IMG/VR virus record: IMGVR_UViG_2778261349_000008
Coordinates: 1-40,068 of that record
Direction: 5' to 3' (one strand)
DNA: 40,068 nt
From: a virus
Lineage: Duplodnaviria; Heunggongvirae; Uroviricota; Caudoviricetes
Part shown: piece after piece, positions 2,304 to 37,472 of the stretch
Layout: each line of letters opens with the position of its first letter
How positions within the stretch are numbered: position 1 is the first letter of the stretch
Translations under genes and position numbers: made by a program
Notes under the pieces: model-generated
Seen by the model: the letters and a program-made list of their open reading frames with translations, nothing else
Database searches by the model: none
Told to the model about the DNA's origin: nothing

Positions 2304-2951
2304 TTAGCCACGGTTAACCTCCTGCGGCGGTTCTGGCAGCGGCATCCAGTGGGTTACTTTTGATGCAGGTTCTTCTCCAATGTCAGTTACTGCCCACCAT
2401 TTGTTTCTCGACCAATCGTAATACCCTTCGAAGGTATCGCGTCCAGCAAATCCGCGAGACTCCCCAAAAAACCAAACATACTGTTTATCGTCCGGCATTC
2501 GCTCACTACAGCTTATCCAACCATCCGGAGTTACCGGAGAGTTGCCGCGTTCTTTAATGTGCAAGCGAGGCTCACCATCTTTTGGTTCAGGCCACTGGCG
2601 TTCCATGTTGATCTTCAATTTATTTTCCATAGCAGCGGTAATTTCAGCATCACTGATACCAGCACGGCGCTGTGCATCCCACAACAGGAACTGCATATCA
2701 GCCCACTCGCTGAGATCGTCAGGTTCAGCTGCGGCTTCCAGAGCCTCTTTTGAGAGGTGTTTCAGTGGACCAATGGGGCCAACGCAGCCAAATGTGGAGT
2801 CAGACCATTTGGCATGCTCGTGGCGAATCTGTTCGCGTTCCAGTGATGCCAGTGCAATCCGTGCCACTTCCATTTGTTCGCCACGGGTAAGCCCGTTATC
2901 AAGCGGATTTTTAATGAATAATTCGATACGTTCTTTGGTTATAGCGCTCAT
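2304..2951 (-). CDS. Phage early protein with DUF550-like N-terminal and DUF551-like C-terminal regions
   Basis: Start taken at the internal ATG (MSAITKERIEL...) preceded by AAAGGAGAG and overlapping the upstream stop (ATGA); the C-terminal W-rich segment (WISCSERMPDDKQYVWFF...WMPLPEPP) resembles DUF551 as I recall it. Confidence 0.65.
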   Translation of the reverse strand: MSAITKERIELFIKNPLDNGLTRGEQMEVARIALASLEREQIRHEHAKWSDSTFGCVGPIGPLKHLSKEALEAAAEPDDLSEWADMQFLLWDAQRRAGISDAEITAAMENKLKINMERQWPEPKDGEPRLHIKERGNSPVTPDGWISCSERMPDDKQYVWFFGESRGFAGRDTFEGYYDWSRNKWWAVTDIGEEPASKVTHWMPLPEPPQEVNRG

Positions 2952-2952
2952 A

Positions 2953-3903
2953 TCACTCTCCTTTGATGCGAATGCCAGCAAGCCAGTTTCTTATGCCGAT
3001 ATATTCAGCGTTTCTGAAACCGCTTTTTACATATATAAAAGGCAAGCGAAGATTGTGACCATTGGCTGCCAAGTAGTCTTTACAACCCTGCTCGGTGAAA
3101 CAGCAGGTCACGAATTCATCAATATCTTTCACAGCAACGCGACGCCATTTTTCTGGTGGCTCCCGAAAGTTTTCATGAAGTAGTTCGAGACGACGACTTT
3201 GGCGTTTATTGGCTTCATTGCCATCTTCGTCAACCCAGACAATCCGGTCATGGTCATAATCAGCATCAACAACGATTTCGCGCTTTTGATACACACAAAA
3301 CATGGGATCTGACGTTATTCGATTGTCCTGTGTTCGAATATTTTCACCGATGATGCCAAACGAATCTGGTGCAGATTTTGTCTGCATCTCTTCGATACGT
3401 TCAGCCATCGCAGCACACTCTTCAAAGTTGCTTAATGCTTTTCGCTCCCATTCGGCGCATTGTTTTTCCAGTTCTGCTATGTGCTTACTTCCATCCGCGA
3501 TTACTCCCTCGTAATACTCGCGTTGCTCGTTGAGTTTTGATTTTGCTTCCTCAAGCTCAACACGCAGTTTCCCTACCGTTAGCGCAATATCCTCGTTCTC
3601 CTGGTCGCGGCGTTTGATGTATTGCTGGTTTCTTTCCCGTTCATCCAACAGTGCCAGCACGGTAGCTGGACTGGCTGCGGCGATGAATTCAGCATTGGCC
3701 TGCTGTTCCATTTGGAAATCTTCATCGAAACCGCTTTCTGGATGCGCTCCTTCAATTCTGAAAATAGGAATATATCCAGCAGCCTCGCGATGAATTAGTG
3801 CATCATCACCATCAAATCGGCCATCTCCATATTCGAGCGACCACTCGCCACACGTTGCTTTTTCTGCCTTAGCACGCAGTGCCTGATAGTCAATCTTGCT
3901 CAC
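2953..3903 (-). CDS. Ead/Ea22-like early protein
   Basis: 316-aa ORF with N-terminus (M)[21 protein letters not shown] typical of lambdoid Ea22-like proteins; GTG start preceded by AGGAGG; coiled-coil-like acidic middle region. Confidence 0.7.
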
Positions 3904-29272: not shown

Positions 29273-30679
29273 ATGGCTACTTGGCAAGGAACAAACGGCG
29301 GATTGTTGGCTGGTATCGGCGGCGTCAACTCAAACGCCCCGAGCGTAAATGACATCGGCAATACGCTTCAACTTATCAGGCAGAACAATGATATTGAGCG
29401 TTCAGGCTCTAACAATGTTGGGCTGACTGCTTTGCAAGGCCTTTCAGGTATTGCGGGGGTGTTTCAGCAGGAAAAGCAGGCTCAGCGGCAGAAAGAATTT
29501 CAGCAGGCATACGCTAATGCTTATGCGTCTGGTGATCGCGGTGCTTTGCGTCAGTTGGCTACTCAATATCCAGACCAGATTGAATCCGTTCGTAAAGGCA
29601 TGGGATTCATTGATGAAGACCAACGTAATTCTATCGGCACCTTAGCGGCTGGCGCACGCCTTGCGTCATCGTCTCCAGAAGCAATGCAATCATGGCTGCA
29701 AAACAACGCCAAGGAACTGACTCGCGTCGGTGTTGACCATAACAGCGTTGCTCAGATGTATCAGCAGAACCCTTCAGGATTTGGTGAGTTTGTTGATCAC
29801 CTTGGAATGGCTGCTCTTGGTCCGATTGATTACTTCAATGTTCAGGACAAGATGGCTGGTCGTGAAATTGACCGAGGCAGGCTGGCAGAGACAATCCGCA
29901 GCAATCAGGCTGGAGAAGCACTTCAGGCGAGAGGGCAAAACCTTTCCTATCAGTCAGCAATGACTGGGCACAATATCGCAGCACAACGCTTGGCTCTGGA
30001 TCAGCAGGAGTTCGGGTTTAAGATGCAGCAAGCGCAGGAAAAGGCTCAGCAGTTGATTAGCGAAGCACCTAAGCTGTCAGTAAACATGGAAAAAGGCATC
30101 GAGACGGCTGTAAACAATGCCACAGCATCATCAAACTCAGCCAATTCTATGAGTGCGCTTGCTCAACAGTTCAGAGCAGAAAAACCAACGACAGGTTTGT
30201 TCGGTAACGCACAGAACATGTTCGCAAAACTTACCGGAAGCGATACGACATTGCGTGATTTACGCATTCGCCAAAATGCCCTTGTTAACAGTCAGGTTCT
30301 TAAATTCCTACCTCCCGGCCCCGCAACGGATAAAGACGTTGAGATCGTTCGTCAGGGTGCACCAACTGACATGGATAACCCTGAGACGGTCGCAAGATGG
30401 CTTGATGCTATGGCAAACCTTGAGCGACGAAACGCGCAGTTTAATGAGTTTAAAGCCGAGTGGATGAGCGCGAATGGCAATCCAGGACAATCGCGTAATG
30501 GCGGTCAGATATTGGGGTTGGATGTTAAAAAAGGTGAATCATTGGGGAGTGCCGTTAAGCGGTATATGTCAATGAATACTGACGCAGCGCCAGCACAAGA
30601 TTCGACACCTTCAGGAGAACCAAGGAATCAGGTTGGATCATATACCTCAAAATCAGGCATTCAATTTACGGTGGAATGA
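29273..30679 (+). CDS. Ejection protein (P22 gp20-like)
   Basis: 468-aa ORF, size and position of P22 gp20. Confidence 0.75.
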   Translation: MATWQGTNGGLLAGIGGVNSNAPSVNDIGNTLQLIRQNNDIERSGSNNVGLTALQGLSGIAGVFQQEKQAQRQKEFQQAYANAYASGDRGALRQLATQYPDQIESVRKGMGFIDEDQRNSIGTLAAGARLASSSPEAMQSWLQNNAKELTRVGVDHNSVAQMYQQNPSGFGEFVDHLGMAALGPIDYFNVQDKMAGREIDRGRLAETIRSNQAGEALQARGQNLSYQSAMTGHNIAAQRLALDQQEFGFKMQQAQEKAQQLISEAPKLSVNMEKGIETAVNNATASSNSANSMSALAQQFRAEKPTTGLFGNAQNMFAKLTGSDTTLRDLRIRQNALVNSQVLKFLPPGPATDKDVEIVRQGAPTDMDNPETVARWLDAMANLERRNAQFNEFKAEWMSANGNPGQSRNGGQILGLDVKKGESLGSAVKRYMSMNTDAAPAQDSTPSGEPRNQVGSYTSKSGIQFTVE

Positions 30680-32682
30680 TGAAAGTAACTGCAAACGGTA
30701 AGACATTTACCTTTCCTGATGGTACGAGCACCGAAGATATTGGCACCGCCATTGATGAGTATTTTGCTGGTCAGTCAGCACCAACACAACAAGGTGTTCA
30801 GCAATCTCCAGCAGACAACTCACTTGCATCAGGATATGCACAGCTTGCCACTCAGCAGAAGGAAGGACTAGATCGCTCTGCTGAGCAAGGGGCTGTTTTA
30901 GGTGCTGCAATGCGCGATGCCGTTACCGGTGAAAGCCGAATGACACCAGAAATGGAGAGACTGCAAAATGTTGGGTCTGCTCCAGAGCTTAATAGCTTAA
31001 GCACTGATGCGCTGCGTGCTGGACTGGGGCAGCTATTTGGTTCCGACGCTTCACAGGAGAAAATACTGCAAAGTATTGGCGGGAAAATCCGGAAGGATGA
31101 GAAGGGAAATTCCATAGTCACCCTTCCTTCAGGGGAATATGCACTTAACAAGCCTGGTTTGTCACCGCAGGATATAACGTCATTCTTGGCAAATGCTCTT
31201 GCATTCACTCCAGCAGGTAGAGCTGCGTCTGTTGTAGGTGCAACACTAAAATCAGGCGCTACTGATTTAGCTTTACAGGGTGCCACTAAGATCGCTGGCG
31301 GTGAGAATGTTAATCCAGTTCAAACTGCAATTTCTGCTGGTCTTGGTGGGGTACTGAAGGGTGTAGAAAACACCGCAAGCGCAGTGTCTCGTTCTGCTAT
31401 GGGTAAGATTGCTCCTGAAAAACAAGCTCAGATTGACTTTGCCAAGCAGAACAACTTGCCACTGATGACAACAGATCTTGTGGAACCGGGAACAAATATT
31501 GGTAAGCAAGCACGAGCTATGGCTGAGCGAATCCCAATAGCCGGAACAGGTGGGATAAGAAATGCACAGCAAAAGGCCAGGGAAGATTTAGTTAGAACAT
31601 TTAGCGATAATGTTGGTGGAATATCTGACGCACAACTTTACCAATCAGCTACTCGTGGTCAGCAGCAATTTATTCAGGCTGCTGGCAAGCGGTACGACAG
31701 GATCATCAGTTTGATGGGGGATACTCCTGTTGACATCACTGGAACAGTGAAAGCAATTGATGAGCAGATTTCCAAGTTAACTCGCCCAGGAGTATCGCAA
31801 GACCGCTCAGCTGTTTCTGTCCTTCAACAGTTTAGAAATGACATCACCAGCGGTCCAAATAACCTGCAATTAGCTAGAGAAAACCGTACAAACTTACGTA
31901 AGCGCTTTATGGCAGCACCTGACGAGGTCGATAGAGATACGTTGGAGAAAGCTGCGCAGTCTGTTTATAACGCATACACAACAGACATGAAAAAAGCGGT
32001 TGGCGCAAAACTAGGTGCGAAGGAAGCGCAAAACATGTCGCGTGTTGATCGTTCTTGGGCAAAGTTCAACGACATGATGAGCAATACACGTGTCCAAAAA
32101 GCTATTCAGAGTGGTAAAACAACGCCAGAAGATGTCACTAAACTAGTATTCAGCCAAAGCCCAGCGGAAAGGGCGCAACTTTATCGATTGCTTGATGATA
32201 GTGGGCGTCAAAATGCTAGAGCAGCACTTGTTCAGCGTGCAATGGATAAGGCGACAAGCGATTCAGGAAAGCTTAGCGTTGAGAAGTTTATTAATGAAAT
32301 GAAAAGGAATCGGAAGCAGGCTGAGACGTTCTTCAGAGGAGAGCATGGGAAACAGCTTGATGGGATAATGAAATATCTTGATTCCACTAGACAGGCAGCT
32401 ACTGCTGCCGCAAGCCCACTAACAGGGCAAATGGTAGCTGGTCCAGCAGCGCTGATAACAGCTCTTGCGTCTGTTACAAATCCAATGTTTGCAAAAGTTG
32501 CGGCAGTTGGAGCTGGTATCGGTATGGCTGGCAGGGGCTATGAGTCACGCGCGATGAGGAACGCATTACTAAAGTTAGCAAACACGCCAAAAGGAAGTAC
32601 TGCTTATGATAGAGCGATCAGACGGGTATCTGAAACTCTTACACCTCTAATTCAGGCTTCAAGTGAGAAAGCCCAGCAGTAA
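30676..32682 (+). CDS. Ejection protein (P22 gp16-like)
   Basis: 668-aa ORF, last of the three ejection-protein genes. Confidence 0.75.
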   Translation: MMKVTANGKTFTFPDGTSTEDIGTAIDEYFAGQSAPTQQGVQQSPADNSLASGYAQLATQQKEGLDRSAEQGAVLGAAMRDAVTGESRMTPEMERLQNVGSAPELNSLSTDALRAGLGQLFGSDASQEKILQSIGGKIRKDEKGNSIVTLPSGEYALNKPGLSPQDITSFLANALAFTPAGRAASVVGATLKSGATDLALQGATKIAGGENVNPVQTAISAGLGGVLKGVENTASAVSRSAMGKIAPEKQAQIDFAKQNNLPLMTTDLVEPGTNIGKQARAMAERIPIAGTGGIRNAQQKAREDLVRTFSDNVGGISDAQLYQSATRGQQQFIQAAGKRYDRIISLMGDTPVDITGTVKAIDEQISKLTRPGVSQDRSAVSVLQQFRNDITSGPNNLQLARENRTNLRKRFMAAPDEVDRDTLEKAAQSVYNAYTTDMKKAVGAKLGAKEAQNMSRVDRSWAKFNDMMSNTRVQKAIQSGKTTPEDVTKLVFSQSPAERAQLYRLLDDSGRQNARAALVQRAMDKATSDSGKLSVEKFINEMKRNRKQAETFFRGEHGKQLDGIMKYLDSTRQAATAAASPLTGQMVAGPAALITALASVTNPMFAKVAAVGAGIGMAGRGYESRAMRNALLKLANTPKGSTAYDRAIRRVSETLTPLIQASSEKAQQ

Positions 32683-32690
32683 AAAGTTGG

Positions 32691-33083
32691 TTAGCGGTTG
32701 ATGGTTGCTTTTTTCGGGTCATACCATCTCGGCCATTCTTTCAGGAATGGGAATGAGTCGGGTGCGTGGTTCTTTTTGTACGATTTAAGCAGCCTTAACC
32801 GCTCAATCGCACACTCATAAACCTCTTGTTGCCCTGTAGTCATCTCGGTCCATGAAAGGTGATCCATTGATAAGACAACGTTTTCAGCTTCTTTTATGAG
32901 GGCGTTTTTATTTCTCACCGCAGCAGCATGGCTGACAGAGCAATCCTGCCATATTCTTAAAAGCCAAATAGCTAAGCAGATGAAAAAAATGGTAGATAGC
33001 GATATATACACACCAACCTCTTTAGTTTTTCTAGTTACTTTGTCACGATAGGATATGCGAAATGATAAAACTAAATTGCGCAC
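32691..33083 (-). CDS. Hypothetical membrane-anchored protein (130 aa as listed; an alternative GTG start at about 33011 has an AAGAGG RBS)
   Basis: Single N-terminal hydrophobic segment YISLSTIFFICLAIWLLRIW; AT-rich; downstream of the mnt operon; no recognisable family. Confidence 0.5.
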   Translation of the reverse strand: MRNLVLSFRISYRDKVTRKTKEVGVYISLSTIFFICLAIWLLRIWQDCSVSHAAAVRNKNALIKEAENVVLSMDHLSWTEMTTGQQEVYECAIERLRLLKSYKKNHAPDSFPFLKEWPRWYDPKKATINR

Positions 33084-33271
33084 ATGATAACTCAGTAATA
33101 ATTGTTAATGAAAACATGATCACCTATATTGCACAAGGCGAAACAGGAAGCATAATCTGGTTTCATGAGAGTGATCACGCTTGGGTAAATCAAAGTCAAG
33201 AGGAAATACTTGAAATTATCAAAAATAACTATCTAAACGTTGCACACGACTCATCTATCCATTTTTCATAA
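33062..33271 (+). CDS. Hypothetical small acidic protein (69 aa) antisense to the mnt-operon cargo
   Basis: ATG with a possible AGGA RBS; overlaps the 3' end of the 33229-33810 gene and the listed start of the 32691-33083 gene. Confidence 0.3.
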   Translation: MIKLNCAHDNSVIIVNENMITYIAQGETGSIIWFHESDHAWVNQSQEEILEIIKNNYLNVAHDSSIHFS

Positions 33272-33810
33272 AATTGTATACCGAGATAGGCAAGAACAGA
33301 TGGATGTATATCAACAAGCTTTTCGCCAAGATGTTCTGTTGGAGGTGGATAATCTTTGCCTTGGTTTCTTACGGTTATAGGCATAGTTGTTGCTGGATGA
33401 AACTCAACTATCATAGGGTCGCCTTCGTATTTTGCTATTTTCCCTGTTGAATCAATGATTAACTCTTTAATATAATGGCTTCTTGCTCCCGGAAATGCCC
33501 CAAGAGTAGTATAAGGAGGTTCAAGTTTTGAGATTTCCATAGTGGAATGATGATCAGCATTTCTTGCTTGGTGAAGGTAAGCAAGTGTTTTGTCTGTTTT
33601 TCTAAGCATGAACTTTTGGTTGAAGTGGCTGCTAAATTTTCCACTAACCGGCTTTGTTGCACAGAGCAACTTACTGAAAGACTTTTCTATATGCCCAAGA
33701 CATTCTCGCCAGTGCATTTCAAAATCATCATGGTTTGTAGATGATTTCATCTGCTCTAGGCACTTTTTAGCTGCGATTATTTCTTTTTTTGCTGGGTTGT
33801 AATCGATCAT
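33229..33810 (-). CDS. Hypothetical protein (193 aa), AT-rich cargo gene translationally coupled to mnt
   Basis: ATG overlaps the mnt stop (ATGA); composition distinct from the flanking structural genes; no recognisable family. Confidence 0.65.
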   Translation of the reverse strand: MIDYNPAKKEIIAAKKCLEQMKSSTNHDDFEMHWRECLGHIEKSFSKLLCATKPVSGKFSSHFNQKFMLRKTDKTLAYLHQARNADHHSTMEISKLEPPYTTLGAFPGARSHYIKELIIDSTGKIAKYEGDPMIVEFHPATTMPITVRNQGKDYPPPTEHLGEKLVDIHPSVLAYLGIQFYEKWIDESCATFR

Positions 33811-34058
33811 TTTGCATTCTTGCCATACATGGTTTTCAGCGTCTCAACATCGTGTTCAAGATCTATCAATCGTGATGCTATAGTTGCAAGGTCTAGTGCT
33901 TGAATGTGTTTATTTTTTTCTGTCCACGCCTCAAGTGCCGCGACCATCTCAGCATTTAATGAACGAGAATTAGCCTCAGCCAGTTCAATAAGACGTTCCT
34001 TTATCTCTACAGGAAGCCTCAGATTCACTTGAGGGTTTTTGTACTTACGATCAGACAT
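33807..34058 (-). CDS. mnt: Mnt-like ribbon-helix-helix repressor
   Basis: 83-aa protein from the internal ATG (MSDRKYKNPQVNLRLPVEIKERLIELAEANSRSLNAEMVAAL) resembling the P22 Mnt N-terminal RHH domain; the listed ORF start is a GTG two codons upstream. Confidence 0.7.
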   Translation of the reverse strand: MSDRKYKNPQVNLRLPVEIKERLIELAEANSRSLNAEMVAALEAWTEKNKHIQALDLATIASRLIDLEHDVETLKTMYGKNAK

Positions 34059-34064
34059 CGGCAC

Positions 34065-34162
34065 ATCCTGAATAATTTTTTACCACAGGATATGTAGGTA
34101 TCTATTGACTATCAATGCGTACCTAAATACTATGTATGCGTACCACATACAAAGGAGCAAAA
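34065..34162. promoter_or_regulatory. Divergent mnt/arc promoter-operator region
   Basis: 98-bp AT-rich spacer between the divergent mnt and arc starts, with partially palindromic elements (ggtatctattgactatcaatgcgtacc). Confidence 0.4.
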
Positions 34163-34309
34163 ATGAAAGTTAAGACATTAAGGATGCCAGAATGGCTGGA
34201 AAAGGCTTTGGAGCAGTCCGCGAAAAAGGATGATCGGTCGTTCAGTAATGAGGTATTGAGGAGACTAAAGGAGTCAGTAGCTAAGGATGGAATTGTTTGT
34301 CCAGAATGA
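34163..34309 (+). CDS. arc: Arc-like ribbon-helix-helix repressor (48 aa)
   Basis: ATG with AAAGGAG RBS; translation MKVKTLRMPEWLEKALEQSAKKDDRSFSNEVLRRLKESVAKDGIVCPE has an RHH-like pattern; divergent from mnt and upstream of ant; below the ORF-track cut-off. Confidence 0.6.
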   Translation: MKVKTLRMPEWLEKALEQSAKKDDRSFSNEVLRRLKESVAKDGIVCPE

Positions 34310-34375
34310 GTAAAGCCCAAGCTATTGCGAGTAGCTCGGGCTTAAATCGCCAGTAAATTTTGAGGAAAAACTGAC

Positions 34376-35305
34376 ATGAAAAGTATAGCAACAGCAGTAT
34401 CTACTATCAACGTGCCATTCCACGGCGCAGAGCTTTATGTCGTCAATCACAACGGTGAGCCGTACACCCCAATGAAACCTATCGTTGAAGGTATGGGTAT
34501 GGATTGGGCTTCACAGTTTACGAAAATAAAGCAACGGTTTAAAACCTCCATTGTGAAAATCACAATGCAGCTTCCTGGTGATGAACAGTGCCGTGAGATT
34601 ATTTGTTTGGCACTTCGCAAACTTGCTGGCTGGCTGCAAACCATCAGCCCTAACAAAGTCCGCCCTGAAATCCGCGACAAGGTAATCCAGTATCAGGAAG
34701 AGTGTGACGATGTGCTCTATGAGTACTGGACTAAAGGCCATGTGGTTAATCCACGCAAAGCTAAAAAGGCGTTGCCGGGCAAAATCACCACTGAACAGCA
34801 GGAAGCCATTAAACAACTCGTCATGAGTCGCGGTCAGTCTCTGCCAAAAGAAAAACAGGCTAAGGCGATGATCACCATGTGGTCGTCACTAAAATCCCAT
34901 TTTGGATGTTCGTACAAAGAAATCAGTGAGGAGCAGTTTACCGAAGCACTATCACTTGCAGCTCGAGTTCCACTTGAAGGCGAGTTTATCGGCAAACAAG
35001 AGAAGAAAACCAACGAGCTTTCTGCAAAAGAAGCAAACAGCCTTGTATGGTTATGGGATTATGCCAACCGTTCACAGGCATTATTCCGCGAACTGTATCC
35101 GGCATTAAAACAAATTCAATCGAACTATTCCGGGAGATGCTACGACTACGGTCATGAGTTCTCGTATGTTATCGGAATGGCGAGAGACGTTTTAATCAAT
35201 CACACACGAGATGTTGATATCAATGAGCCAGACGGACCAACGAATCTTTCCGCATGGATGAGACTTAAGAATAAAGAATTACCTCCTTCAGTACATAACT
35301 ACTGA
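34376..35305 (+). CDS. ant: Antirepressor (Ant-like)
   Basis: 309-aa ORF downstream of arc, in the position of P22 ant. Confidence 0.7.
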
Positions 35306-35405: not shown

Positions 35406-37472
35406 ATGACAGACATTACAGCCAATGTGATCGTATCGATGCCTTCGCAACTCTTCACTATGGCGCGTTCTTTTAAAGCTGTAGCCAATGGAAAAATTTA
35501 TATCGGTAAAATTGACACTGACCCTGTAAATCCTGAAAACCAGATTCAGGTTTATGTGGAGAACGAAGACGGCTCTCACGTTCCCGTTTCGCAACCAATC
35601 ATCATTAACGCTGCTGGATATCCGGTATATAACGGACAGATTGCCAAATTTGTAACTGTGCAAGGCCATTCTATGGCTGTTTATGATGCATACGGTGCTC
35701 AGCAGTTTTATTTTCCTAATGTGCTGAAGTATGACCCTGATCAGCTAAGACAAGAATTAGAGAGTGGTATCGGAGCTTCAATAATAGGTTACGGATCATC
35801 GACAGTAAAAGATGCTCTTGATTCGGTTGTAAATAAACGTGTTTTGTACTTTTCCAGATTTGGCACACTGCAATCGCTGCAATCTTACATCACATCTAAC
35901 AACCTTAAAAACGTTGAAATTATTTTTGATCAGGTTGTGAATTTTGGCCCAGGAAGCGGAGGGTTGGGTACAATTGTTTCATTAAGCGACATGGACTATC
36001 TCGCCGTTAAGGGTTTGGTAATCAGAGACACTCTGCTTTATTCCGGCGCATTTGACCTGACGCGTGTGTTCGACCTGACGAATATCACCAATCTGGTGTT
36101 TGAAGTTGATGCCTCTTCCACACTTGAGTATGTCGGTGATGATAAGCGCGGACTGACCACACTGCGCCTGAATGGATGCGATAACTTCACATTTATCGGT
36201 AAGACTAGCAAGTGCTATCAGGGTTACGAATGCACTAATGTAAAAAATCTCTATGCTCGTAGTGTGAATAATGACACCCGCTACCCTCATCTTATGAGCA
36301 ATATAGGTTTGGTAGATATCAATACAAAAAACAATGGATGCCGCAGGGATTTCTTTCTTCAAAACAACTGCGCTGGCGGGCAAATCACAGTTGATGCCGT
36401 TGACACCCAGCAGGGTACGCCCATAAAGATGTATTTCTTTAACGGAAATATGGACAACCAGATATCTAATCTTGTTATAAAATATAAATATAGGAGCACA
36501 GGGAGATACACATTGCCATATCGTGTGGCTCCAATTTGGTTAGATTGGGGGTGGGATAGCTCGACAACAGAGACACTTATATCTGGTGTAATGCGTAATA
36601 TCACCATAGAGTATGATGTTGTAGGAGGCAATTGGGGTAGTGTCATTGGTACAACCAAACTAATAGATGAAACTATTGGGGATGGTGTAGCAAGAGGATA
36701 TGTTTATTCAAACATATTAATCAAAGGAAGAATTGAGTTAGGAGGAGGAGACTCCAATAATAAAGCGTGGGTATATAATTTTAACACTACCGATAACTGG
36801 AAAGATGGAGATGATATTAATGGATTTTACCTAAAAGACATTGTAATAAGAAAGTTAAATGGCGGTGAGGTGTATCTCAATACAAATCAATTAGCTGGGG
36901 CAGTGAAATCTAGTGGGCAAATAGTTTTGGATAATGTTTCTGCACCAGAGCTGATACTTTCAGCTCAAAGTTATGGCGATAAGGTCATGTTTAATAACTG
37001 CAATCTTTATGATTTCACAACTAAAAATGCTGTTAAAAATGCATATCAATCGCTTAAAACTACATGTACGATAAGAAAAGCATCAGGCGATGCCTCAAGC
37101 TTCCAAATTGGGTCAATGAGTGTATATAGAACAATCTGTTTCCTTTCGGTAGATATTAAAGCGACATCACCTTCATCAGGAAGTGTAAGTACATGGGGTG
37201 GTAATATAACTGGACAGTTGGTGCAAGGTACTACAGCAGGAAATGTAACATTAACTGGCAATACAAATACTTTGTACACAACAGGAACGGCATTAAATCC
37301 GTCTATTAGGTGCGAGACAGACGGCAGGATTATAATTACATTTGCAGGGTGGGAGTCGCTTGAAGCATTCATAACGTGCGATATTGCAATGGTTTACAAT
37401 GAATATTCAGGTGGATCTAATAACACAGTTCTCGGCCTGGTAAACAAGAAATTTGCTGTTGGAACTGTTTAA
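35406..37472 (+). CDS. Tailspike protein: P22/HK620-type N-terminal head-binding domain fused to a divergent beta-helix receptor-binding domain
   Basis: N-terminal ~110 aa ([46 protein letters not shown]...NVLKYDPDQ) match the conserved head-binding domain; the remaining ~575 aa do not resemble P22 or HK620 tailspikes as I recall them. Confidence 0.85.

Follow-up and report, generated by a model that had tools for sequence, protein, structure and literature searches.

Solo HEPN proteins have been described as prophage-encoded defences: HepS is the solo HEPN defence protein of the Gifsy-1 prophage of Salmonella (STM14_3211; PDB ID:9OIK) (PMC13043305), and Tha is the HEPN defence protein of a Staphylococcus aureus prophage, expressed in the lysogen, where self-targeting at induction is avoided by a small, overlapping antisense gene (PMC11087260). 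HepS was also sought in the Gifsy-1 prophage of LT2 for comparison, and no copy was found there. According to the survey of the HEPN superfamily (PMC3710099), the fold is a four-helix up-down bundle that is formed from two α-hairpins, with an Rx4-6H motif located at the end of helix 3, a polar residue (N, D or H) located after the arginine, and a second acidic residue located in helix 2, often as part of an Ex3[KR] motif; in Csx1, an insert (a hairpin) is situated straight after the HEPN motif. In P22-like phages, the stretch from gene 16 to the tailspike gene is a slot for variable cargo (PMC8022706).

Here, we have analysed two cargo genes that occupy this slot, orf193 and orf106, within the window, i.e. 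the whole stretch of 40,068 nucleotides of DNA under analysis. The reading that we prefer, with a probability of roughly 0.5, is that they are two separate cargo genes: orf193 would encode a HEPN-type abortive-infection protein, while the unrelated orf106 would encode an exclusion-type membrane protein.

Layout of the gene 16-mnt interval

ORF calling has placed both cargo genes on the minus strand of a P22-like Escherichia coli prophage, and the order of the genes, from the gp16-like gene through the two cargo genes to mnt, arc, ant and the tailspike gene, is the layout of P22 immI (Table 1). The genes that follow mnt differ from phage to phage, including sieA, YobH together with a 122-aa gene, a YafO-family toxin (in CUS-3) and other unknowns; together with the published description of the slot, this variety bears out the earlier claim of the first-pass annotation that a cargo slot lies between the gp16-like gene and the tailspike gene. 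Our comparison shows that the gene 16-mnt interval has two independently exchangeable positions, one immediately downstream of mnt and the other against gene 16, a finding that is of use for anticipating the host range of phages, or resistance to phage therapy, in lysogens of E. coli and Salmonella.

Table 1. Features of the gene 16-tailspike stretch, in positions of the window
Feature	Position	Strand	Remarks
gp16-like gene	30676-32682	+	
orf106, 106 aa	32691-33011	-	GTG at 33011; SD AAAGAGG; phrog_10450, E 1.8e-51 (function unknown)
24-codon upstream extension of the "130-aa" ORF (also RefSeq's)	33012-33083	-	not conserved; lacking in homologues
AT-rich spacer, 217 nt	33012-33228	-	GC 0.33; accompanies orf193 whatever gene comes next
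Weak promoter-like site	33090-33062		within the spacer
ORF69, 69 aa	33062-33271	+	antisense; probably not a gene
orf193, 193 aa, soluble	33229-33810	-	phrog_23516, E 7e-120 (function unknown); no TM segment
β-rich inserted domain, codons 94-154 of orf193	33349-33531	-	DSSP of the AF2 model
Candidate HEPN Rx4H motif, codons R83-N84-A85-D86-H87-H88 of orf193	33547-33564	-	R83 and H88 invariant in 48 members
mnt-like Arc/RHH repressor gene, 85 aa	33807-34064	-	Pfam Arc, E 3.3e-10
Candidate Pmnt, TTGATA-17-TATCCT	34087-34115	-	consensus scan alone
Pant-like site	34105-34133	+	divergent; overlaps candidate Pmnt
arc	34136-34309		beyond mnt
ant	34376-35305		after arc
Tailspike gene	35406-37472		after ant

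Both cargo genes had been described as more AT-rich than their flanks; relative to gp16 (GC 0.471), this is true of orf193 (0.385) and of the spacer (0.332), but orf106 stands at only 0.433, and the tailspike gene (0.401) comes close to orf193 in AT-richness. Neither gene had been assigned to any recognisable family, in agreement with the lack of Pfam, NCBIfam and PADLOC matches; nevertheless, both belong to PHROGs, of unknown function, and orf193 carries a HEPN signature. The search of PADLOC-DB v2.0 has returned no family at E <= 1 for orf193, orf106, mnt or ORF69, and the sequence profile search of the PDB has returned no meaningful match for orf193 or orf106. Each of the two genes, taken singly, could reasonably be proposed to protect the lysogen.

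The start codon of orf193 (ATG, 33810-33808) overlaps the stop codon of mnt (TGA, 33809-33807) as ATGA; this overlap, already pointed out in the first-pass annotation, recurs in 8 of the 8 related loci that have been read at sequence level, i.e. in seven of the 14 IMG/VR contigs that carry orf193 and in L019, the locus of a 62%-identical homologue. In the remaining seven contigs, the tblastn coordinates place a Mnt-type gene directly against orf193, and the annotation of each of the 21 E. coli genomes with orf193 shows an Arc-family gene under the match. The candidate Pmnt overlaps the divergent Pant-like site, as in P22 immI, and would drive mnt-orf193, possibly with read-through to orf106. 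As orf193 is translationally coupled to mnt, we may fairly infer that it is expressed in the lysogen from Pmnt. The mnt gene of the window is 96% identical to CUS-3 mnt at the DNA level and is, judging by its sequence, a hybrid allele, in which a CUS-3-type RHH ends with the last ~13 codons of the P22-type Mnt allele; the RHH alleles that we have compared have a common ETLK.MYGK.AK tail, with the junction of the blocks located near 33847.

The orf193 family and its predicted HEPN fold

The family of orf193 comprises 1,777 cluster representatives at 50% identity, nearly all of them stand-alone proteins of about 190-200 aa, and by exact sequence it is common in E. coli (at least 1,000 contigs). 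The tblastn search of orf193 against 50,697 deposited phage genomes has found no match, yet 14 IMG/VR contigs carry the gene. The profile searches, conducted with 48 diverse members (24-47% identical to orf193), describe a large and unnamed family that is at present covered by no curated library: no Pfam model matches any of the 48, HEPN families included; NCBIfam matches neither these members nor the two cargo proteins; and PADLOC gives scattered weak matches, with RTasHEPN occurring in two of the 48 (E 0.035). The alignment of the family with one Ymh HEPN protein by hhalign has also produced no match (probability 0.3%).

Across the same 48 members, the invariant residues are W34, D73, Y78, A82, R83, H88 and P157, with H160 also named as invariant. 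Position 84, directly after the invariant arginine, is polar in 45 of the 48 (N in 24, D in 13 and H in 8), while position 31, located in helix 2, is occupied by E in 30 and by D in 3, and position 35 by K or R in 24; these two positions are only moderately conserved, and orf193 itself has E31-x3-R35.

The AF2 model of orf193 (pLDDT 88.8, pTM 0.79) is a four-helix bundle, formed by helices 5-23, 27-52, 60-83 (kinked) and 170-191. R83 is modelled as the last residue of helix 74-83, i.e. at the end of helix 3, with H88 located in the loop that follows, and the β-rich domain, as an insert, separates the Rx4H motif from the last helix of the bundle, with strands assigned by DSSP at residues 94-97, 100-105, 114-119, 125-130, 133-138, 141-144, 147-149 and 152-154. 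The insert of Csx1 is a precedent for this placement.

Thus, of the characteristics of the HEPN superfamily, orf193 displays the four-helix bundle, the position of the Rx4H motif and the polar residue after the arginine, but no profile match to an established HEPN family. The same bundle, Rx4-6H motif and polar residue are found in the HEPN families AbiV, Abi2/AbiD/F and Ymh, which the model resembles (PMC3710099); the HEPN families of abortive-infection and restriction-modification systems are also often stand-alone and located near restriction-modification loci or mobile elements (PMC3710099), as are the relatives of orf193 beside HsdR and Ymh. On the other hand, the Pfam models of these families match none of the 48 members, and a large β insert before helix 4 is not described for them, Csx1 having only a hairpin (PMC3710099). 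From the model and the conserved residues, orf193 probably represents a new family of the HEPN superfamily with an inserted β-rich domain, and its best reading, by analogy with the described systems, is that of a predicted HEPN-type RNase, acting as a solo abortive-infection protein that would be expressed in the lysogen.

We consider it rather unlikely that orf193 is instead a metal-binding enzyme (with H88, H160 and D73) or a binding or regulatory protein, serving lysogenic conversion or phage regulation and not defence. The invariant D73, Y78, H160 and W34 could indeed form a different, e.g. metal-binding, site, no sequence method ties orf193 to the HEPN families, and Foldseek has found no significant match to the model in the PDB or BFVD; however, the invariant R83 and H88, with N, D or H after the arginine, are placed as the HEPN survey describes (PMC3710099).

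Following the preferred reading, the mnt promoter would provide the lysogen with a small and steady supply of orf193, as expected from the overlap of its start codon with the mnt stop codon, and the protein would rest as an inactive oligomer, by analogy with HepS and Tha. A protein of the infecting phage would switch it on, possibly through the β-rich insert, which is a candidate trigger-sensing surface, and the activated protein would cut RNA, perhaps tRNA or other cellular RNA, with the result that the infection is aborted. If orf193 is an active HEPN RNase, a name and a function would be given to a large family that is in no curated library; if this is true, HepS and Tha would be joined by a third "solo HEPN" defence of a prophage that is open to experiment, located in the classic P22 immI region, whose mnt, arc, ant and sar genetics are thoroughly understood. 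The locus would then offer a clear-cut way of testing how a prophage can tie a suicide nuclease to its lysogeny circuit without killing itself on induction.

A more far-reaching version, which we find quite unlikely, holds that orf193 founds a widespread, unrecognised HEPN family (~1,800 clusters at 50% identity), that the β-rich insert is a sensor for an incoming P22-like structural or ejection protein, and that the antisense position of the gene solves the problem of self-targeting. In this version, orf193 would be hard-wired to the translation of Mnt in the lysogen, while being antisense inside the late operon; on induction, the late transcription from gene 16 to gene 9 would collide with mnt-orf193 (and orf106, where co-transcribed) and silence it, as an equivalent of the Tha/Ith antisense switch that needs no protein.

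The coupling with mnt also permits the reading of mnt-orf193 as a type II toxin-antitoxin-like addiction cassette, where the RHH protein would both repress transcription and neutralise an orf193 toxin, and the prophage would be stabilised, not defended; this we regard as very unlikely. A small RHH gene located upstream of a putative RNase, with a 4-nt overlap, is the classic type II layout, but the usual partner of orf193 is a canonical P22-type Mnt, which is the established repressor of Pant. Every related locus that has been read at sequence level has the overlap, including L019, where the two genes are located beside a umuC fragment, outside the normal immI context, and the last ~13 RHH codons travel with orf193 across RHH alleles; yet the RHH alleles coupled to one and the same orf193 are just 33% identical to each other. 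Although the RHH protein weakly matches FitA-like and RelB-like antitoxin models, an RHH neighbour is absent from 8 of the 8 sampled relatives outside P22-like phages: the conserved upstream antitoxin of type II systems is not found, as the RHH coupling occurs only in the P22-like and L019 contexts. The resemblance to the HepT/MntA (HEPN/MNT) system is a coincidence of names: MntA of that system is a nucleotidyltransferase antitoxin, whereas no nucleotidyltransferase occurs here, and Mnt is an Arc-family RHH repressor. Lastly, no antitoxin is needed for HepS, itself a solo HEPN protein, to be non-toxic (PMC13043305).

Independent assortment of orf193 and orf106

Among 5,426 complete E. coli genomes, orf193 is found in 21, orf106 in 57, and both, contiguous, in two. 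In the 14 IMG/VR contigs, the gene that follows orf193 is of the SieA type in 10, orf106 in three and another gene in one, and orf106 occurs without orf193 in phage N7, in loci L017 and L018, and in mEp043. A mosaic breakpoint is located between the blocks of the two genes, near 33008-33029. Therefore, orf193 and orf106 assort independently: they are separate cargo and not a matched pair.

These counts do not support the sensor-effector arrangement that the first-pass annotation had suggested, taken here as one two-gene defence module that works only as a pair, with orf193 as the soluble sensor and the membrane protein as the effector. The two genes are adjacent and co-oriented, with no predicted terminator between them, and the pair recurs in two E. 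coli genomes and in three IMG/VR contigs, but these two genomes are all that the 21 carriers of orf193 and the 57 carriers of orf106 have in common. With the independent assortment, the SieA-type successors, the solitary orf106 homologues and the breakpoint all standing against it, this model is close to refuted and we give it hardly any credence. The distant relatives of orf193 argue in the same direction, as they have no conserved membrane neighbour.

The evidence on the distant relatives comes from eight sampled loci; in the contig scan of the neighbourhoods, near-invariant peptides were used as the query, leading to a single locus. In all eight, the relative of orf193 is a solo gene without a conserved neighbour, whether a membrane or an RHH protein. 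One adjoins a tailspike gene at the end of a prophage and another adjoins a lambda-type terminase, while one has a type I HsdR on one side and a large nuclease-helicase on the other, with Fic close by, and one is located beside a Ymh HEPN gene, Phd/PIN and IS1; these contexts are prophage ends and defence islands, whereas three of the eight are ordinary chromosomal neighbourhoods.

The block 33008-33847, which includes the spacer, is common to E. coli genomes with different downstream genes. Neither a terminator nor any unusual RNA structure (z 0.30) was found in the spacer, and it probably carries the promoter or the 5' UTR of the downstream slot gene; the weak promoter-like site that is listed in Table 1 is located there.

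On the plus strand, ORF69 was considered as an Ith-like antisense inhibitor or antitoxin and rejected: three of its three variant sites are non-synonymous, one of them changing ATG to TTG, it matches no family, and no homologue is found beside the distant relatives of orf193. By this pattern of substitutions, ORF69 is probably not a gene. Compared with Tha/Ith, orf193 is alike in being prophage-encoded, HEPN-type (as predicted here) and expressed in the lysogen (as deduced here), but it comes from another host and another family, and the sole antisense ORF shows no sign of selection.

orf106 as the occupant of the sieA position

The protein encoded next to gene 16 had been described as 130 aa long with a single N-terminal membrane anchor. 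The anchor is upheld, as there is only one TM-like segment (residues 1-26), located at the extreme N-terminus, but the length is not, the protein being 106 aa long from a conserved GTG: the match to phrog_10450 begins at residue 25 of the "130-aa" ORF, the homologue of phage N7 is annotated with 106 aa, and the same GTG opens the homologues of L017 and L018, with an in-frame stop codon 48 nt upstream in L018. The 24-codon extension falls in the block that is linked to orf193, outside the block of orf106, and, from this comparison of homologues, it is probably not translated. In the AF2 model (pLDDT 86), helices are located at residues 5-48 and 59-77, and the C-terminal part is helical.

In all of the P22-like loci that we have examined (N7, L017 and L018), orf106 abuts gene 16, convergent with it, in the slot of sieA. 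Both SieA (PMC10883804) and the product of orf106 are membrane-anchored and encoded downstream of mnt, convergent with gene 16, and the slot after orf193 can be filled by a SieA-type gene or, in its stead, by orf106. SieA proteins, however, have about 160-190 aa, two broad hydrophobic regions and several TM helices, as opposed to the 106 aa and the one N-terminal TM helix of orf106. A comparison with SieA had been proposed earlier as a check, and it has revealed no similarity: no alignment with the annotated E. coli SieA was obtained at E <= 100, and the motif FxRYPxEAxxFNK (types A-C) is absent from orf106. From its position, orf106 is probably independent cargo in the place of sieA, encoding an exclusion-type membrane protein that would be expressed in the lysogen; we propose that its N-terminal anchor sits in the inner membrane and that it would act at the membrane, as a candidate alternative to SieA in the position that abuts gene 16.

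A tenable alternative, with the odds moderately against it, is that orf106 is not an exclusion protein but a small membrane-anchored regulator, or an entry or lysis factor of its own phage that is tied to the type of gp16. It is consistent with the DNA-level linkage between orf106 and one gp16 allele, at the 3' end of the latter, as well as with the absence of SieA similarity and of any PADLOC match and with a single TM helix where SieA has several. However, the gene runs opposite to the late operon and follows a lysogeny repressor gene in each of two unrelated types of phage, after mnt in P22-like phages and after cI in mEp043, a placement that is typical of lysogen-expressed cargo and argues against a role in the virion or in lysis.

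The homologue in mEp043, gp49, is situated directly after cI in the same orientation, i.e. in the position of lambda rexAB, a likeness that is positional only. In this rexAB-like placement, both orf193, located after mnt, and the orf106 homologue, located after cI, appear set to ride on the transcript of a lysogeny repressor.

The immI region and the overlap of orf193 with mnt

The window is an E. coli prophage of the P22-like type (Lederbergvirus); over its left 25 kb, it shares 97-98% identity with Sf6, HK620 and their relatives along long stretches. Three minus-strand genes are located between the gp16-like gene and arc: mnt, the 193-aa gene joined to it (orf193), and a membrane-protein gene (orf106). 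A sub-threshold Rfam match to the sar RNA (RF00262, over the full length of the model, with E 0.0043 and 29.3 bits where the gathering score is 43) falls between arc and ant, where sar is located in P22. The gene order and this match are those of the canonical immI region, and the match suggests that antisense control of ant is retained. As the first-pass annotation had stated, the slot between the gp16-like gene and the tailspike gene is a known place for cargo, the gene 16-gene 9 interval being already a known variable region.

Features of the immI region in the window
Feature	Position	Strand	Remark
gp20-like gene	29273-30679	+	
gp16-like gene	30676-32682	+	
orf106	stop end 32691	-	
E. coli mobile unit	33008-33847		spacer, orf193, last ~40 nt of mnt
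69-aa ORF	33062-33271	+	overlaps orf193 3' end by 43 nt
orf193	33229-33810	-	
Terminator-like hairpin	33563-33585	+	antisense in orf193
mnt	33807-34064	-	85-aa Arc/ribbon-helix-helix (RHH); Pfam Arc, E 3.3e-10
P22-type mnt tail	33807-33847	-	
Terminator-like hairpin	34017-34034	+	antisense in mnt
Candidate Pmnt	34115-34087		divergent from Pant-like site
ATGCGTACC, copy 1	34115-34123	+	
Imperfect palindrome	34133-34151		contains copy 2
ATGCGTACC, copy 2	34136-34144	+	
arc	34136-34309	+	
sar-like match	34309-34375	-	
ant	34376-35305	+	P22_AR_N and P22_AR_C domains
Tailspike gene	35406-37472	+	

The overlap of the orf193 start (ATG, 33810-33808) with the mnt stop (TGA, 33809-33807), which had been read from the sequence, is confirmed as an ATGA at 33810-33807. 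The same overlap is found in all eight related loci that were read at the sequence level, i.e. seven IMG/VR contigs and the comparison locus L019; in the other seven of the 14 IMG/VR contigs with orf193, located by tblastn coordinates, a Mnt-type gene lies directly against orf193, and in each of the complete E. coli genomes that carry orf193 (21), the annotation places an Arc-family gene under the match. The overlap is no local accident.

The usual gene upstream of orf193 is the canonical P22-type Mnt (MARDDPHFNFRMP...). Comparison of the mnt tail with loci L024, L028, L035 and L026 and with phage CUS-3 has revealed that the mnt of the window is a hybrid, in which a CUS-3-type RHH body is joined to the last ~13 codons (ETLKTMYGKNAK) of the P22-type allele; as both RHH genes occur in tandem in L028, L035 and CUS-3, the arrangement in the window looks, from sequence, like a product of recombination or deletion. 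In the divergent Pant/Pmnt region, ATGCGTACC occurs as two direct copies, 21 bp apart; these are possibly operator half-sites for RHH repressors.

Family and predicted fold of orf193

Both orf193 and orf106 are hypothetical in every source examined, and no mention of their RefSeq accessions was found in the literature searched. The view that neither belongs to a recognisable family stands for Pfam and PADLOC, where neither is matched (nor is orf193 in NCBIfam), but not for PHROGs, which place them in phrog_23516 and phrog_10450, respectively, both of unknown function; nor does it account for the HEPN-like motif of orf193. A word-indexed protein search returned only seven relatives of orf193, which was not found in deposited phage genomes; with an exhaustive profile search, the family grew to 1,777 cluster representatives (E <= 1e-3), 1,304 of them at E <= 1e-10. 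Nearly all members of this large family stand alone and are about 190-200 aa long. Across an alignment of 48 members, 24-47% identical to orf193 and all without a Pfam family match, W34, D73, Y78, A82, R83, H88 and P157 are invariant, and R70, L75, L76 and H160 are near-invariant.

The AlphaFold2 model of orf193 is confident (pLDDT 88.8, pTM 0.79), and in it a beta-rich domain (94-154) precedes the last of the helices (5-23, 27-52, 60-72/74-83 and 170-191); a HEPN-like core with an invariant Rx4H and an inserted beta domain is predicted. In HEPN proteins, the Rx4-6H motif is placed at the end of helix 3, its arginine is followed mostly by N, D or H, helix 2 frequently carries a conserved acidic residue, often as Ex3[KR], and Csx1 has a beta-hairpin inserted right behind the motif (PMC3710099). 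Correspondingly, in orf193, R83 ends the third helix and H88 is located in the loop after it, 45 of the 48 members have N, D or H at position 84, helix 2 has a moderately conserved E31 (E in 30/48, with K/R four residues on in 24/48), and the beta domain is likewise located directly behind the motif. A non-HEPN function would agree with the profile methods (Pfam, NCBIfam, PADLOC, PDB-sequence profile search, hhalign), none of which confirmed the HEPN assignment, and with a negative Foldseek search; on the strength of the motif position, residue 84, the helix-2 acid and the insert, we consider it probable (about 70%) that orf193 represents a new HEPN family. Solo HEPN prophage defences are of a known kind; what would be new, judging by sequence and predicted structure, is a family with this unusual insert.

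Eight orf193 relatives were sampled for their contexts, which include prophages and defence islands: one adjoins a tailspike gene at a prophage end, one a lambda-type terminase gene, and one a Ymh gene (a HEPN family), Phd/PIN and IS1; another is flanked by type I HsdR on one side and a large PDDEXK/AAA helicase on the other and has Fic close by, another is located near a DDE transposase, and three have unremarkable neighbourhoods. No neighbour is conserved among the eight, and thus orf193 is a solo gene. In L019 (1015-2157), a 62%-identical homologue is ATGA-coupled to an mnt-like RHH gene and adjoins a umuC C-terminal fragment (weak DUF4113 match) and a 210-aa membrane protein; as this pair lies outside any recognisable immI region, RHH-orf193 may move as a two-gene cassette. 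The L019 pair and the gene layout would also suit the suggestion that mnt-orf193 is a type II TA-like RHH-toxin cassette, but the RHH alleles are interchangeable and RHH partners are absent elsewhere, which argues against it. In CUS-3, the slot after the two mnt genes holds a YafO-family toxin gene (2668-3087, -; PF13957, E 3.2e-11), overlapped and preceded by a 199-aa gene (3072-3671, -); RNase-toxin-like cargo thus recurs at the post-mnt position.

The orf106 gene and its position

Within 5,426 complete E. coli genomes, orf193 occurs in 21 and orf106 in 57, the two being contiguous in only 2; in the 14 viral contigs, the gene after orf193 is SieA-type (10), orf106 (3) or a 122-aa gene (1), and a mosaic junction separates orf193 from orf106. 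The two genes are no pair, and these counts do not support the proposed sensor-effector arrangement.

The orf106 reading frame is open back to GTG 33083 (130 aa), while its conserved start is GTG 33011, behind AAAGAGG. Alignment with the PHROG profile begins at residue 25 of the 130-aa form; the relative in phage N7 is annotated with 106 aa; divergent homologues (65-77% identity) have 103-106 aa and start with MYISLS; loci L017 and L018 have the same GTG behind a strong Shine-Dalgarno, with an in-frame stop 48 nt upstream in L018; and the 24-codon extension lies within orf193-block DNA, outside the orf106 block. By these sequence comparisons, the true length is 106 aa, and of the 130-aa protein with one N-terminal membrane anchor that had been described, the anchor is retained: a single hydrophobic helix at the extreme N-terminus, followed by helical segments (AF2 pLDDT 86). 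RefSeq NZ_CP082824 has orf106 in the over-extended 130-aa form (L001 4092-4484), and in strain MB53 (L002 3510-4076) the SieA gene is also extended into the same shared upstream block; both N-termini are therefore probably about 24-25 codons too long.

The two cargo genes had been described as more AT-rich than the ejection and tailspike genes. This applies to orf193 (GC 0.385) and the 217-nt spacer (0.332) against gp16 (0.471; whole window 0.466), but orf106 is only at 0.433 and the tailspike gene itself at 0.401.

The orf106 relatives of P22-like prophages are always convergent with gene 16, as in N7; in L017 the relative follows mnt and two other genes, and in L018 it directly follows a 116-aa Mnt. 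In phage mEp043, gp49 (L021 2989-3285, +), a 31%-identical homologue (E 9e-5), is located between cI and PL, immediately behind the repressor gene and co-oriented with it; in lambda, rexAB occupies this position. Placement after mnt and after cI in two unrelated phage types would let orf106 ride the lysogeny-repressor transcript and points to a lysogen-expressed membrane function. As the slot may instead hold a SieA-type gene, the obvious guess from position is superinfection exclusion (PMC10883804). The orf106 protein has no similarity to an annotated SieA.

Proposed expression and action

Mnt is active in the P22 lysogen; mnt-orf193 would be transcribed from the candidate Pmnt in the lysogen, with translation of orf193 coupled to that of Mnt. 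By analogy with the solo HEPN defences HepS (PMC13043305) and Tha (PMC11087260), orf193 would be inactive at rest. A phage protein would activate it, perhaps via the beta domain, and its cleavage of RNA would lead to abortive infection.

Between orf193 and orf106, no terminator was predicted, and the only promoter-like site in the spacer is weak and has an altered -10 element in two further strains; expression of orf106 may thus depend on read-through, on a weak PsieA-like promoter, or on both. The putative promoter of P22 sieA is located <=85 bp from its start.

The 69-aa ORF antisense to the spacer, called by some pipelines (protein GDO12305.1), would be read by late-operon transcription; it is probably non-coding, as 3/3 variant sites among strains are non-synonymous, including ATG>TTG. 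The two terminator-like hairpins, which have T-rich tails, are located where late-operon transcription passes on its way from gene 16 to the tailspike gene.
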